From Dehalococcoidia bacterium (GTDB lineage: Bacteria; Chloroflexota; Dehalococcoidia; Lucifugimonadales; UBA1127), in the NCBI GenBank assembly GCA_965116355.1, contig OZ220679.1, positions 1,204,752 through 1,268,751 on the forward strand: a DNA stretch of 64,000 bases. Direction: 5' to 3'. The position numbers and the translations under genes are program-made. Under the pieces are notes generated by a model that was given only the letters and a program-made list of their open reading frames with translations, ran no database searches and was not told the DNA's origin. This document shows positions 53,784 through 57,882 of this stretch, piece after piece (within the stretch, counting starts at the first letter, position 1; the number at the start of each line of letters is the position of its first letter).

Positions 53784-53800
53784 TGTGGTCGAGGGGCGGG

Positions 53801-53829
53801 TTGACAATGTCTTGGCGCGTACCTAGTGT
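53801..53829 (+). promoter_or_regulatory. Sigma70-type promoter
   Basis: TTGACA-17bp-TAGTGT upstream of the protease gene. Confidence 0.6.
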
Positions 53830-53864
53830 GAAACTTGGACCTTGGCAGTGGAGCGTTCATGTCG

Positions 53865-54257
53865 ATGGGCATGTTTACAGTGCCGATGGAAATCGCCAAC
53901 CCTCAGGGTGGCCCCGCCGCGTCAATCGAGCCGGTGGTGGATACGGGCGCAGGCTTTTCCGTGATGCCCGCGTCCCTCCTGGAAAGGCTCGGCGTCCAGC
54001 CCGTGGAACAGGAAGAGTTCATGCTTGCCAGCGGTGAGGTGCGTGTGTACGCCGTTGGCGAGGCCCGCTTCAAGATCGACGGCCGGGAGCGCACCACCCC
54101 TGTGGTGTTTGGCGACGACGGGGTGTTCCTGCTCGGCGCCGTGACCCTGCAAAACTTCGGACTCGTCGCCGACACCACTGAACATCGACTCGTGCCCGCC
54201 AGATTGCTGCTCGTCGGCATCCAGCCGGACATCATACAAGGAACGCCCACGCACTAG
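53865..54257 (+). CDS. Stand-alone clan AA aspartyl protease
   Basis: MGMFTV...[12 protein letters not shown]...[12 protein letters not shown]. Confidence 0.85.
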
Positions 54258-54339
54258 ACGGCCTTCACCGCCCCTACCCCCGCTCAAGCACCCCCTCCGT
54301 TCGCCCTGAGCCCGTCGAAGGGCTGCCCAAACCCCCGCC

Positions 54340-54416
54340 GATCCCTTCATCAACCCCTTGATCTCTGCGTCCCATGTGATCAACGATCAGTCAACGCCTA
54401 CCTAGATCATTTGATC
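54340..54416. promoter_or_regulatory. GATC cluster upstream of the methyltransferase
   Basis: GATC at 54340, 54360, 54378, 54385, 54405 and 54413. Confidence 0.75.
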
Positions 54417-54451
54417 GTCACCTTGGGTCGCGTGGAGCAAGAGCACAGCCC

Positions 54452-55636
54452 GTGATAAACACATCCCCATCTCTCGGACGAAGCCTTTGGAAATCGGCCG
54501 ACGGACAGTCCGCGCTGTACCACGCGGACTCAATCGAGCTCATGGCCACCATCCCGCCAGAATCAGTGGATTGCATCTGGACTGATCCCCCCTACCTCCT
54601 CTCCAACGACGGAGTGACATGCGTTGCAGGAAAGCGCGTCAGCGTCAACAAGGGGGAGTGGGACCGCAGTGGCGGCGTGGATAGCGACTATACGGCTAAC
54701 CTCATATGGCTCGGCGCGTGTCACCGCATTCTCAAGCCTGCCGGCACCATCTGGATAACGGGAACGCTACACATCTATCTCAGCGTCGGCATGGCCTTGC
54801 AGCAGCTTGGCTTTCGAATACTCAACGACATCATTTGGGAGAAGCCCAATCCGCCGCCGAACCTCGGCGCGCGCTGTTTCACTCACTCGACAGAGGTCGT
54901 CTTGTGGGCCACGAAGGCACCAAAGGGCAGCAAGCACCGTCACACCTTCAACTATGAGGAAATGCGCGCCGAAAACGGCGGAAAGCAGATGAAATCAGTC
55001 TGGCGCTTTCTACCCGCCGGGCAGGGCGAGAAGCGTTTCGGCAAGCACCCGACCCAAAAGCCCGTCGCCCTTATCGACCGCTGCATTCGCGCCAGCACTA
55101 ATCCAGGCGACATTGTGCTCGACCCCTTCGCGGGAACAGCAGCAACCGGGGTTGCCGCCTTGAAGAATGGGCGGAACTTCATCGGTATCGAGCAAGACAT
55201 CAGATTTGCGGAAATCGGCATGAGGCGGCTTATGGACATTGATGCAGGCAGCACACCTGTTCCTTCTCATGGACAAAGCGCTACCCCCCCCCCCCCGAAC
55301 AATTGTACCAAAACCGTCTTCTGGAAAAATCCAAGCGCTACGGCAAGAAGTCGTAAGAGCGGCCTGCTATGTCCACAGACACTCCATCACCACCAGGGCA
55401 CTCCGACAGCTGGCAAGCCATATTCCAGCACTGCGATATCGAGAATCATGCCTTCGATCGGGAGCCATTCCGGCTTTCTGCGAGGCAAATTAATGAAGCT
55501 TGCCAACGTTTTCCCCGCCCAGGTCAGAAGGAAGTCCGACTCCTCTGCAAGCAAGACACGCGAGAATCCCGTCCCAGCCTCTTCCAACGCCACGGACTGT
55601 TTATCCTTCCCGTTCGCAACGGCCAGTACGTGTTAG
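54452..55636 (+). CDS. DpnA (M2.DpnII)-like beta-class N6-adenine DNA methyltransferase; natural stop probably 55356, read past because of the C13 tract
   Basis: TDPPYLLSNDG, SVNKGEWD, PNL..R.FTHSTE, GKQMK.VW, KHPTQKP, LDPFAG. Confidence 0.9.
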   Translation: MINTSPSLGRSLWKSADGQSALYHADSIELMATIPPESVDCIWTDPPYLLSNDGVTCVAGKRVSVNKGEWDRSGGVDSDYTANLIWLGACHRILKPAGTIWITGTLHIYLSVGMALQQLGFRILNDIIWEKPNPPPNLGARCFTHSTEVVLWATKAPKGSKHRHTFNYEEMRAENGGKQMKSVWRFLPAGQGEKRFGKHPTQKPVALIDRCIRASTNPGDIVLDPFAGTAATGVAALKNGRNFIGIEQDIRFAEIGMRRLMDIDAGSTPVPSHGQSATPPPPNNCTKTVFWKNPSATARSRKSGLLCPQTLHHHQGTPTAGKPYSSTAISRIMPSIGSHSGFLRGKLMKLANVFPAQVRRKSDSSASKTRENPVPASSNATDCLSFPFATASTC

Positions 55637-56163
55637 TGAAGGGCGAGGGCTACTTGGACATTCCTCCAATCGATACCCCTGTGCAGGAATACTCCAGCAA
55701 CTTCCCTTTCATCCTGGAAACCTCCCGTGTCGGCGATTCGGAGATGCAGCATTTGGATCGCGCGTTTGCGTTAAGCCTCATACGGCATTTTACGGAAGAC
55801 CCGTCCCTGGTGATGACCATACGCGGCAGGAAGTACACCCCAAAGTTTGAATTCGTCACCGGGGAGTTCTTGCTCGAAGCCGAAGGGGTGCAGACAGAGG
55901 TCGATGCAGGATATGAGGGAGAAAGGCAAGTCGTCCTGATAGAAGCCAAATCTCCCAAGGCCAACAACACGATTATTCGGCAACTCTACTATCCCTTCCG
56001 GCAATGGAGTGAATGGACCGACAAATCGGTCACCACAGTGTTCTTCCAACACACCGATAACGATGAATTCCACCTGTGGCAGTTCGGCTTCGCAGACAAG
56101 TTGGACTACAACAGCGTGTACCTCGTGAAATCCGGCCGGTTCCGAATTGCCCAGCACCCTTAG
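55369..56163 (+). CDS. Putative type II restriction endonuclease (PD-(D/E)xK)
   Basis: QTEVDAGYEG...VLIEAK, IRQLYYPFR; directly follows the MTase; lower GC. Confidence 0.7.
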   Translation: MSTDTPSPPGHSDSWQAIFQHCDIENHAFDREPFRLSARQINEACQRFPRPGQKEVRLLCKQDTRESRPSLFQRHGLFILPVRNGQYVLVKGEGYLDIPPIDTPVQEYSSNFPFILETSRVGDSEMQHLDRAFALSLIRHFTEDPSLVMTIRGRKYTPKFEFVTGEFLLEAEGVQTEVDAGYEGERQVVLIEAKSPKANNTIIRQLYYPFRQWSEWTDKSVTTVFFQHTDNDEFHLWQFGFADKLDYNSVYLVKSGRFRIAQHP

Positions 56164-56246
56164 GATCTCCGCATGGTATACTCGCGCCTACTGTAGTTTT
56201 GGCTGATATTGCTACCATCCACACCCACACCGCGCGAGAGTTGCCA

Positions 56247-57032
56247 ATGGACCTGCAAATGGACCCAAGCGTTGCCGCAGGCTACACGAGCCTCAGTCAA
56301 GTGGCCCGCAAGGTCACCGGAGACTGGGCAGCCCGCAACCTCTTTTGCCCTGCGTGTGAGTGGAACAGCCTCAACCAAACTCCCTCTGACTCCACTAGGC
56401 TGGACTTCCTCTGTCCTGAGTGCAGCGCATCGTTTCGGTTGAGAGGCAAGAGCGGGGCGTTTGGCCGCGTTGTCCCGAACTCCGCATACCAGCCTAAAGT
56501 CGACGCTATTCTGAGAGGTGAAAGCCCACACTACGCCTTTCTGCGCTACAGCCGCACCAACTGGACAGTGAGCGATCTTTTCTTGGTGCCCGGCTTCTTC
56601 TTCACCCCCGCCCTCATCCAGGAGCGACGCCCGCTCAAGCCAACCGCAAAGCGGGCAGGCTGGGTAGGATCAAACATCCTGCTTGGCGCGCTTCCCGCCG
56701 AGGCGCGTGTCCCTGTCGTAGTTTCCGGCTTGGTTCGTGACATCACCGAGGTCCGCGACGATTGGGCTCGCTTCCGCTTCCTGCAGACAGACGAGCGGGC
56801 ACACGGCGGATGGGGAGCTGCTGTGCTCTCTTGCGTCCGCGATATGGTGCGAATCTCCAGACAGCAAGAGTTCACGCTCCAGGACTATTACACGCTCTAC
56901 ACGGACGTGCTCTCAGCCCAATTCCCGGACAACCACCACGTCCAGGACAAGATCCGGCAGCAACTGCAAATGCTGCGTGACGCGGGAATCCTGACCTTCC
57001 TCGGCAATGGCCGTTATGAGGTCATCGACTAG
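56247..57032 (+). CDS. DpnI-family protein (G-m6A-TC binding) with degenerate catalytic site
   Basis: Y.S.SQ.AR, CPAC...CPEC zinc site, PTAKRAGWVGSNI, winged helix NHHVQDKIRQQLQMLRD.G...F.GNGRY. Confidence 0.88.
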   Translation: MDLQMDPSVAAGYTSLSQVARKVTGDWAARNLFCPACEWNSLNQTPSDSTRLDFLCPECSASFRLRGKSGAFGRVVPNSAYQPKVDAILRGESPHYAFLRYSRTNWTVSDLFLVPGFFFTPALIQERRPLKPTAKRAGWVGSNILLGALPAEARVPVVVSGLVRDITEVRDDWARFRFLQTDERAHGGWGAAVLSCVRDMVRISRQQEFTLQDYYTLYTDVLSAQFPDNHHVQDKIRQQLQMLRDAGILTFLGNGRYEVID

Positions 57033-57099
57033 CAGCCCCCACCCCCCGCCGCGTGCTATACTCCCCCGCAAACACCCCCACCACAGAAGGAGCCACGCC

Positions 57100-57882
57100 A
57101 TGGACTACGGCCTCAAGAACCGCGTCGCGCTCGTCACCGGCGGCAGTGAGGGCATCGGCAAGGCCACCGCCGGCCTCCTCGCCGGCGAGGGCGCCCGCGT
57201 CGCCATCTGCGCCCGCCGCCCCGACGTCCTCCAGGCCGCCGCCGAGGACATCCGCCGCGACACCGAGGCCGAGGTCCTCGCCGTCCCCACCGACCTCCGC
57301 GACGCCGCGCAGGTCGACAACCTCATCGCCACCATCAACGACACTTGGGGCGGCGTCGACGTCCTCGTCAACAACGCCGGCGTCTCCTCCGCCATGCCCT
57401 TCGAGCAGCTCACCGACGACGCCCTCCTCGCCGACATGGAGCTCAAGCTCTTCGGCTGGTTGCGCACCATCCGCGGGGTGCTGCCATACATGAAAGAGCA
57501 GCGGTGGGGCCGCATCATCAACCTCACGGCCCTGGCCGCCAAGGCCCCCGGCGCCAACTCCTACCCGTCCTCCGTCAGCCGCGCCGCCGGCGTTGCCCTC
57601 ACCAAGGCCCTCTCGAAGGAGCTCGCCCCCCACAACATCCTCGTCAACACCGTCCTCATCGGCCTCATCAAGGCCGGCCAGCACGAGCACCGCTGGGAGG
57701 CCAACCCGGGCGGCCAGACCCTCGAGGAGCGCTACGCAGAGATGGGCAAAAACGTCCCCCTCGGCCGCGTCGGCGAGTCCGAGGAGGCCGCCAACCTCAT
57801 CACCTTCCTCGCCTCGGAGCGCGCCAGCTTCATCACCGGCGTCGCCATCAACATGGACGGCGGCGTCAGCCCCGTCGTCTAG
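57100..57882 (+). CDS. Short-chain dehydrogenase/reductase
   Basis: TGGSEGIG, NNAG, PLGRVG, ASFITG...DGG; the YxxxK position reads S..SR (atypical). Confidence 0.88.
   Translation: MDYGLKNRVALVTGGSEGIGKATAGLLAGEGARVAICARRPDVLQAAAEDIRRDTEAEVLAVPTDLRDAAQVDNLIATINDTWGGVDVLVNNAGVSSAMPFEQLTDDALLADMELKLFGWLRTIRGVLPYMKEQRWGRIINLTALAAKAPGANSYPSSVSRAAGVALTKALSKELAPHNILVNTVLIGLIKAGQHEHRWEANPGGQTLEERYAEMGKNVPLGRVGESEEAANLITFLASERASFITGVAINMDGGVSPVV

Follow-up and report, generated by a model that had tools for sequence, protein, structure and literature searches.

A DpnI-family protein with a degenerate active site, a candidate reader of methylated GATC, in a probable GATC restriction-modification cassette of a Dehalococcoidia bacterium

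In pneumococcus DpnI and DpnII are alternative cassettes at one locus. m6A-Tracer, a truncated DpnI, is an engineered non-cutting reader of Dam methylation. The bacterial readers of GATC methylation SeqA and MutH sense the hemimethylated state, and we know of no dedicated natural reader of fully methylated GATC; among the papers listed by a full-text literature search there was neither such a reader nor a description of a natural nuclease-dead DpnI homologue. Here we analysed a stretch of 64,000 nucleotides (the window) from the single-contig genome (2.59 Mb, 66.6% GC) of a Dehalococcoidia bacterium (OZ220679.1, positions 1,204,752 to 1,268,751; window positions are used below). At 54452-57032 three co-oriented open reading frames (ORFs) on the + strand encode a methyltransferase of DpnA type, a putative nuclease (ORF2) and a DpnI-like protein with a degenerate active site. 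We give a probability of about 0.6 to the reading that this last protein is a nuclease-dead, selectively retained binder of methylated GATC inside a GATC restriction-modification cassette. As far as the sequence tells, the locus is most likely a composite cassette of this kind at a variable site of the chromosome.

The locus resembles several described systems and differs from each. Like m6A-Tracer, the DpnI-like protein is predicted to bind Gm6ATC (N6-methyladenine in GATC) without cutting; m6A-Tracer, however, is an engineered fragment, whereas the window protein is natural and full-length, its active site altered by point changes. With the pneumococcal DpnI/DpnII cassettes it shares one chromosomal site at which related genomes carry alternative GATC-related cassettes. 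LlaDCHI of pSRQ700 is DpnII-related and its LlaDCHIA makes GmATC, according to excerpts of PMC4132740 and PMC6458302; the window methyltransferase is 47-51% identical to the second methyltransferase of that system. Unlike DpnII-type cassettes and LlaDCHI, the window has no Dam-class first methyltransferase, and its nuclease belongs to DUF6996/DUF6997, not to the DpnII family. Moreover, unlike LlaDCHI and the pneumococcal cassettes, the window unites writer, cutter and DpnI homologue in one cassette. In Neisseria gonorrhoeae, Drg is a GmeATC-specific endonuclease (excerpts of PMC4269198). There, too, a DpnI-family gene adjoins a DpnA-like methyltransferase gene: NZ_CP119142.1 (7158-13928; L228) contains, in this order, the 3' end of drg, what is left of the 3' part of a Dam-type methylase, and a DpnA-like methyltransferase frame broken by an internal stop. 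The outcome is reciprocal, as in Neisseria the methyltransferase is interrupted whereas here it is intact and the nuclease site is lost. The Neisseria frame is 49.6% identical to the window methyltransferase; no coding sequence is listed there, and the record, though designated a plasmid, measures 2.17 Mb. Finally, type IV enzymes in which winged-helix 6mA sensors are fused to nucleases share with the window protein the DpnI_C-type winged helix that reads fully methylated ApT/GATC. According to excerpts of PMC11037411 these are active, stand-alone enzymes, 87% of them without a methyltransferase among the three nearest genes on each side. The window reader, in contrast, would have no working nuclease of its own.

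The structural reference is R.DpnI of Streptococcus pneumoniae (type IIM; 4esj/4kyw). Its catalytic residues are E25, D53, E64 and K66, of which D53A, E64A and K66A essentially abolish activity; four cysteines bind a zinc ion, and E228, K229, R231, Q232 and Q235 form the methyl pocket of the winged helix (excerpts of PMC3424567). The ligands in metal site 1 are D53, E64 and the carbonyl of L65, the attacking water is placed by K66, a methyl pocket is built by L129/R135/W138/G140, and R126/R135/N48 read guanine (excerpts of PMC4117772). The window protein has the same two domains, the Cys4 zinc site and both methyl pockets. It belongs to the DpnI family with 163.7 bits for PF06044 (cut-off 26.7) and 73.6 bits for PF17726 (cut-off 23), and HMMER aligned 257 of its residues to the DpnI chain 4esj (E 2e-51). 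In this alignment E25/D53/E64/K66 of DpnI read G/D/R/R. Three of the four catalytic residues are gone, and the PD-(D/E)XK catalytic set expected of an active type IIM DpnI-like enzyme is not present. A first-pass annotation, made from the letters and translations alone, had seen the E-x-K as R-x-R and the helix Glu as Gly; the alignment bore this out (G25, R64, R66), with the qualification that the immediate ancestor had QxK. With G, R and R in place of E25, E64 and K66 the protein, unlike R.DpnI, should not cleave, and it stands in an operon-like row with the methyltransferase type that makes DpnI's substrate. The zinc cysteines, the RAGW loop and the KIRQQLQ motif, already described as intact, were found so in the same alignment. 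The zinc site (two CxxC motifs; C34, C37, C56, C59) is invariant in the alignments. In the catalytic domain the readout residues R126, L129, R135, W138 and G140 are kept while N48 is D; in the winged-helix pocket K229, R231, Q232 and Q235 are kept while E228 is D. Foldseek related the AlphaFold model to 4kyw with 7e-13, on a model of low confidence. A non-cutting binder of methyl-GATC thus appears well supported by the residues lost and kept.

How far does the loss extend? The 120 best DpnI-like homologues comprise 110 with E/D/QxK and seven, the window copy included, with G25 and RxR or RxK. These seven are the most similar sequences of the set (73-100% identity) and in a quick IQ-TREE run they were monophyletic (Shimodaira-Hasegawa-like approximate likelihood ratio support, SH-aLRT, 99). 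Their sister group comprises eight QxK proteins, and for several of these a methyltransferase is encoded on the same contig. The closest relatives outside the seven carry QxK, not ExK; therefore, the immediate change in the RxR clade was Q to R and K to R. A broader comparison took 150 representatives of the family, clustered at 50% identity; 133 of them were free of gaps at these columns (17 were not), and with the query they made 134 sequences. Of these, 66 read EDEK, 60 EDQK and two EDNK, five had other single variants, and GDRR occurred in the query only.

The clade appears to be constrained. Among sites at least 95% conserved in the other 113 homologues, 7 of 71 vary within the RxR clade, compared with 50 of 60 of the least conserved sites (Spearman rho -0.58). 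Among sites with at least 90% conservation in the rest of the family, the clade consensus has changed at only six, E25G, N48D, V51R, Y63F, Q64R and K66R, all in or beside the active site. DNA-contact residues are invariant across all seven members except N48 (D or N); D53 is kept in five and is S or G in two. Compared with the sister genome G1042, the DpnI-like gene has a nonsynonymous divergence (dN) of 0.28 and a synonymous divergence (dS) of 1.96, which is saturated, giving a whole-gene dN/dS of about 0.14. The first-pass annotation had named substitutions private to this genome, with dN/dS near 1, as the mark of simple decay. Because the change is common to a seven-member clade under purifying constraint, it is not simple decay; as far as protein comparison goes, the pattern is what one would expect if catalysis had been lost selectively and DNA binding kept. 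No closer copies of the DpnI-like gene were found: a scan of genome contigs returned nothing above 63% identity and one of metagenome contigs nothing above 43%, and genome searches at phylum, order and family level yielded none. Contigs of the six other RxR members did not match any among the 120 best methyltransferase or ORF2 homologues, a weak negative, as these lists reach only about 60-68% identity.

The three genes were described from the outset as co-oriented and of lower GC, and this was confirmed: all three are on the + strand, and GC is 0.53-0.61 across 54.2-57.0 kb and about 0.70 on either side. No gene starts at position 54340, where the first-pass annotation let the module begin; a cluster of six GATC opens there, and the methyltransferase begins at 54452. 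The features are as follows.

54296-57048, no strand: extent of the variable cassette, bounded by the gene of a clan-AA aspartic protease on one side and the promoter-like sequence of a short-chain dehydrogenase (SDR) gene on the other, both conserved; at these points blastn alignments with sister genomes stop and start again, and GC dips in between.
54340-54416, no strand: cluster of six GATC, candidate methylation-sensitive operator; GATC at 54340, 54360, 54378, 54385, 54405 and 54413, 36-112 nt upstream of the methyltransferase start.
54452-55636, + strand: N6-adenine DNA methyltransferase (beta class, DpnA/LlaDCHIB type) that probably acts on GATC (PF01555, 7e-51, residues 39-255); the catalytic domain ends at about 55250, and beyond it a C13 run shifts the frame of a non-conserved tail, which reaches into ORF2.
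55284-55296, + strand: C13 homopolymer in the methyltransferase tail, where the frame departs from that of P0242, the closest relative.
55369-56163, + strand: ORF2, DUF6996 and DUF6997 (Pfam 8e-44 and 5e-22), 264 residues, PD-(D/E)XK nuclease, probable methyl-sensitive type II restriction endonuclease.
56247-57032, + strand: DpnI-family protein, 261 residues, degenerate active site, proposed non-cleaving Gm6ATC binder (PF06044, 4.5e-48; PF17726, 1.4e-20).

The DpnI-like gene most likely starts at ATG 56247 rather than at GTG 56076, which overlaps ORF2, because the Pfam match and the N-termini of homologues begin there. A sigma-70-like promoter scan of 53800-57300 returned 0 sites; therefore, no promoter was placed. 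The upstream neighbour is the aspartic protease gene; the SDR gene downstream has its own conserved promoter-like sequence.

The methyltransferase contains the motifs DPPY and FAGTAATG. CcrM ranks first both among solved structures (1e-53) and among NCBIfam models, in the latter with 215 bits against a cut-off of 830. S. pneumoniae DpnA was absent from the matched solved chains (chains named 'DpnA', 5hfj and 5hek, had 2.5e-29); therefore, the top rank of CcrM in the PDB was not a fair contest. The best annotated plasmid matches (45-51% identity, 216-253 bits) were the second methyltransferases of three-gene cassettes of Dam, beta-class methyltransferase and type II endonuclease, found in Lactococcus (pSRQ700), Staphylococcus and Lactiplantibacillus; alphaproteobacterial CcrM homologues reached about 40% identity and 187 bits. 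Within one alignment the enzyme was 47%, 47% and 45% identical to DpnA/LlaDCHIB-type enzymes and 38% to S. meliloti CcrM. It has a DpnA-type loop-2B (DPPY-LSNDG...VSVNKG-WD), one residue shorter than that of CcrM, and shares with DpnA-like enzymes the FTHSTE loop and the absence of a five-residue insertion. R44-P45 of the CcrM loop-2B, in which R44 reads the first G, is missing from it and from DpnA-like enzymes alike. The set of features that marks the GANTC-type enzymes CcrM and HinfI, i.e. the R44-P45 loop-2B, a Gly-Gly pocket for the N base and a C-terminal DNA-binding domain, was not found; no C-terminal domain exists here. A PF02086 search of the host genome found no Dam-type gene. Most likely, then, the enzyme is of DpnA/LlaDCHIB type, not of CcrM type, with GATC as its target. 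The initial assignment as a DpnA-like enzyme probably acting on GATC is supported by the plasmid matches, the loop motifs and the GATC clusters described below. The methyltransferase ORF has 394 residues and its closest relative P0242 has 316, the frames differing after the C13 run; the tail lacks conservation, and 268 nt of it lie within ORF2. The frame difference could be slipped-strand variation or an assembly error. The methyltransferase of another genome, G1058, likewise ends in a poly-Pro run (L203).

ORF2 had been called a putative endonuclease. At E <= 0.01 it matched only DUF6996 and DUF6997 and not PF04556 (DpnII); a sequence search of solved structures gave a best E of 0.71, an NCBIfam search gave no family, and a full-text literature search found DUF6997 in none of the papers covered. 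ORF2 has 3547 homologues at E <= 1e-5, and in 26 aligned sequences D179, E192 and K194 (D...ExK) are invariant. In the model (predicted local distance difference test, pLDDT, 81.9) residues 110-262 match PD-(D/E)XK nucleases: the best Foldseek match is a Cas4-family protein (9.6e-4), and VIA-align gave Z 5-7.1 to the nuclease domains of BpuSI and DrdV, to NucS and to Hjc. These fold scores are middling and indicate the fold class only. The invariant motif and the fold matches support the call as an endonuclease. At least 17 contig-length matches put an ORF2 homologue on one contig with a methyltransferase of this type, and of 20 loci fetched from the order 7 have it directly 3' of the methyltransferase gene. 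More distant homologues, about 30% identical and fused to an extra C-terminal part, follow DpnM-like Dam methylases (2dpm, 2e-84) on three plasmids of three phyla. By motif, modelled fold and neighbourhood ORF2 is a probable methyl-sensitive restriction partner of the methyltransferase. In the source annotation it is apparently called as an N-terminally truncated form of 175 residues (P0130); the 264-residue form is backed by homologues and Pfam, and the shorter call is probably due to the overlapping read-through ORF of the methyltransferase.

Upstream of the methyltransferase six GATC lie within 77 bp, the last one 36 nt before the start codon. This is the only cluster of at least six GATC within 80 bp in the genome (Poisson expectation 0.05); clusters of four were no commoner than chance (14 versus 17 expected). 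At the same position G1042 has six GATC and the sister genome G931 seven, in partly conserved sequence. Within the order, 8 of 22 methyltransferase loci examined have at least three GATC within about 120 nt upstream. Where DpnA-like methyltransferase and DpnI-like genes adjoin, 13 of 16 evaluable loci have at least three within 150 nt, often with a fixed spacing of 7/6/4 (background 0.54 per 150 nt), and in these 13 the clusters consist of GATC, not GANTC. This supports GATC as the methyltransferase target and suggests a methylation-dependent control of the operon. The window contains 161 GATC compared with 305 expected from dinucleotide shuffles. Genome-wide, the observed/expected ratio of GATC is 0.73 (third-order estimate), the second lowest of the 4-bp palindromes after CTAG; GANTC showed no notable depletion in the genome (0.91).

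The SDR gene is present in 12 of 13 genomes of the genus, and what lies directly upstream of it differs.

This genome: methyltransferase, ORF2 and DpnI-like gene (RxR).
G1042: methyltransferase of 276 residues and DpnI-like gene (QxK), without ORF2.
G931: methyltransferase (88%) and ORF2 (71%), without a DpnI-like gene.
G877: another methyltransferase, on the opposite strand.
G823: D12-class methyltransferase.
G1065 and G973: ORFs of 399 and 266 residues, no family assigned.
More distant members examined: aminotransferase gene.

In the comparison with G1042 the flanking ABC-ATPase and SDR genes have a dS of 0.24-0.30, whereas the methyltransferase reaches 1.10 and the DpnI-like gene a saturated 1.96. 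As the cassette dS is far above that of the flanks, the cassette alleles are far older than the host split and were exchanged at this site. Homology to sister genomes in blastn breaks at about 55233, at 56184-56250 and at 57049, and the window cassette reads as a composite of G1042-type and G931-type cassettes. The inserts upstream of the SDR gene (L216-L226) have a low GC of 0.55-0.59 and differ between genomes. Comparison of these genomes suggests a hot spot of restriction-modification cassettes. A search for D12-class methyltransferases covered ten genomes, some with and some without a DpnI-like gene; the matches were mixed and for the most part weak.

How might such a cassette operate? The methyltransferase would N6-methylate the GATC sites of the genome and the DUF6996/DUF6997 nuclease would cut unmethylated GATC of incoming DNA. 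In this setting an active DpnI would be lethal. The DpnI-like protein would bind fully methylated GATC via both domains without cutting, and the arginines at positions 51, 64 and 66 may exchange the metal site for direct phosphate contacts. Tentatively, it may bind the methylated six-GATC cluster and so report to operon expression that the genome is modified. Pgl is a precedent for 'mark-then-cut' defence. Operons of a DpnA-type methyltransferase and a DpnI-family gene were seen in Dehalococcoidia, archaeal metagenome-assembled genomes and contigs of soil metagenomes. A speculative and rather doubtful extension is that such operons, behind GATC clusters, constitute a widespread undescribed writer-reader system, either for epigenetic feedback or for a Pgl-like defence, with the RxR protein of the window as its pure-reader end-member that controls its operon through the six-GATC operator.

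Several observations weigh against a non-cutting reader in a GATC cassette. Among 178 DpnI-like loci 73 were classifiable, the other 105 having flanks too short. In 18 of the 73 a DpnA-like methyltransferase is located within 1.5 kb, and all 18 are EDQK. Sister-clade DpnI-like proteins with an intact E/D/QxK beside intact methyltransferases of the same type were found in G1042 and at least five contig matches. Because of such neighbours, the first-pass argument that an active pair would be self-lethal is weakened, and a clash with the methyltransferase is at most a possible cause of the loss; either coexistence may not need loss of the nuclease, or we read these enzymes incompletely. All seven RxR members have D26, a position that varies elsewhere in the family, and it might conceivably be a shifted acidic residue. 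The six other members of the clade were compared as protein sequences, gene order and dN/dS coming from the locus of the window copy only. The catalytic domain of the AlphaFold model has a pLDDT of 65.5, too uncertain for inspection of the active site. The GATC specificity of methyltransferase and ORF2 is drawn from relatives at 30-51% identity. Finally, the G931 cassette has a GATC cluster without any DpnI-like gene; therefore, the cluster is independent of that protein. The first-pass proposal of a repurposed m6A reader thus stands in part: catalytic residues are lost and the contacts to DNA and methyl groups are kept, whereas a regulator of the operon or a closed epigenetic circuit is a weaker suggestion, one that the six-GATC cluster would fit.

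The paired operons deserve a closer look. The DpnI-like proteins in them keep E25, D53, QxK and both methyl pockets, and the residues that separate them from solitary ones were only clade markers, none in the methyl pockets. The other 55 of the 73 classifiable loci have no DpnA-like methyltransferase within 2.5 kb; as expected, these solitary copies would seem to behave as methyl-dependent nucleases do. In a sample of 401 genomes of the order, 23 had a full-length DpnI-like gene and 51 a DpnA-like methyltransferase, and both occurred only in this genome and G1042; these counts include kin and are not independent. What the paired QxK proteins do is unexplained: they may cut, the methyltransferase may be held in check, or the pair may form a mark-then-cut or writer-reader system, alternatives which the data leave side by side. 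On twelve metagenome contigs (L105, L110, L117, L118, L127, L131, L142, L145, L147, L154, L160 and L175) a DpnA-like methyltransferase (50-56% identity) is followed by an E/D/QxK DpnI-like gene. These methyltransferases have about 60 extra conserved C-terminal residues, ending in ...ALFIIKTETxI[YF]LA; in those of L110 and L127 Pfam identified the methyltransferase domain only. Most of the twelve operons have four GATC at a spacing of 7/6/4 just before the methyltransferase start. At L203 (G1058:C1:1385946-1389173) a methyltransferase of the window's type precedes an ORF that by eye reads as MutH/Sau3AI-like; no family search was made with the ORFs of this locus. A convergent protein of 323 residues, likewise read without family search, has a PLD-type HxK...GSxN motif and a DpnI_C-like winged helix, and is a putative m6A-sensing nuclease beside a GATC system.

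Other explanations have to be set against the non-cutting reader. The DpnI-like gene could be a relic, a dead restriction gene disabled by the clash with GATC methylation or superseded by ORF2 and awaiting deletion. Three of four catalytic residues are lost, D53 decays further in two of the seven members, cassettes turn over rapidly at this site in the genus, and G931 works with methyltransferase and ORF2 alone. Yet a relic would hardly be expected to leave seven full-length members (73-83% identity) in which changes avoid conserved sites (7 of 71 versus 50 of 60), DNA contacts are invariant and changes at conserved sites are confined to the active-site area; dN/dS against G1042 is about 0.14, albeit with saturated dS. 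We consider a relic unlikely. It is also unlikely that the DpnI fold serves as the ordinary restriction endonuclease of the adjacent methyltransferase, cutting unmethylated sites, and that the window copy was inactivated after ORF2 had replaced it. CfrBI is a precedent for a classical system that senses its own methylation at a promoter, and promoter GATC clusters are a plausible design for this. Operons of this order recur (18 of 73 classifiable loci, all EDQK), the RxR clade is sister to a methyltransferase-paired clade, and paired members keep their catalytic residues. However, paired members show no change in the methyl pocket (L129, R135, W138, which is W or Y, and G140) or in that of the winged helix, 21 of the 23 genomes of the order with a full-length DpnI-like gene have no DpnA-like methyltransferase anywhere, and the conservation of the dead copy would still be unexplained. 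Further, according to excerpts of PMC4117772, none of the pocket mutants of DpnI cut unmethylated DNA.

A different target would remove the conflict altogether. If methyltransferase and ORF2 acted on a site other than GATC, e.g. GANTC, no clash would ever have occurred and the state of the DpnI-like protein would be unrelated to its neighbours. CcrM is the best match in the PDB (1e-53) and, far below cut-off, in NCBIfam, and GATC is only mildly under-represented in the genome (0.73). The PDB ranking is unfair, however, with S. pneumoniae DpnA missing from the matched chains; DpnA-like enzymes of DpnII-type cassettes outscore CcrM homologues by 252 to 187 bits, loop-2B lacks R44 and has DpnA-type length, GATC and not GANTC clusters upstream in 13 of 16 evaluable paired loci, and partner nucleases elsewhere are GATC-linked (distant ORF2 homologues beside DpnM-like methylases, one MutH/Sau3AI-like ORF by eye). 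Such a target is improbable. A nuclease that is still active, with an active site rearranged around D26, D53 and the arginines or with an altered substrate, seems highly improbable. D53 is kept in five of seven members, D26 is invariant in the clade and variable elsewhere, and K66R retains the positive charge; against this, E64A and K66A each abolish DpnI activity (excerpts of PMC3424567), Arg at the metal-ligand position removes site 1, and D53 is S or G in two of seven. If ORF2 requires a GATC-methylated genome, an active enzyme would also be lethal.

If the reading as a non-cutting binder is true, a DpnI homologue with a replaced active site and selected methyl pockets would be a natural reader of fully methylated GATC, the counterpart of the engineered DpnI imaging fragment. 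The locus further illustrates how cassette shuffling at one site brings together a writer, a cutter of unmarked sites and a former cutter of marked sites, and it exposes an unexplained class of operons with an intact methyltransferase and an apparently intact DpnI-like nuclease.

Outside the cassette, short peptides (IPAFAGM/IPAKAGIQ, SFPRRRES, LRGNDE) recur in several ORF frames of the window at about 50.6-50.8, 52.0-52.5, 53.6-53.8 and 57.9-58.9 kb, and also in L016 at 7.6-8.5 kb. Their distribution points to a dispersed intergenic repeat family that flanks genes.

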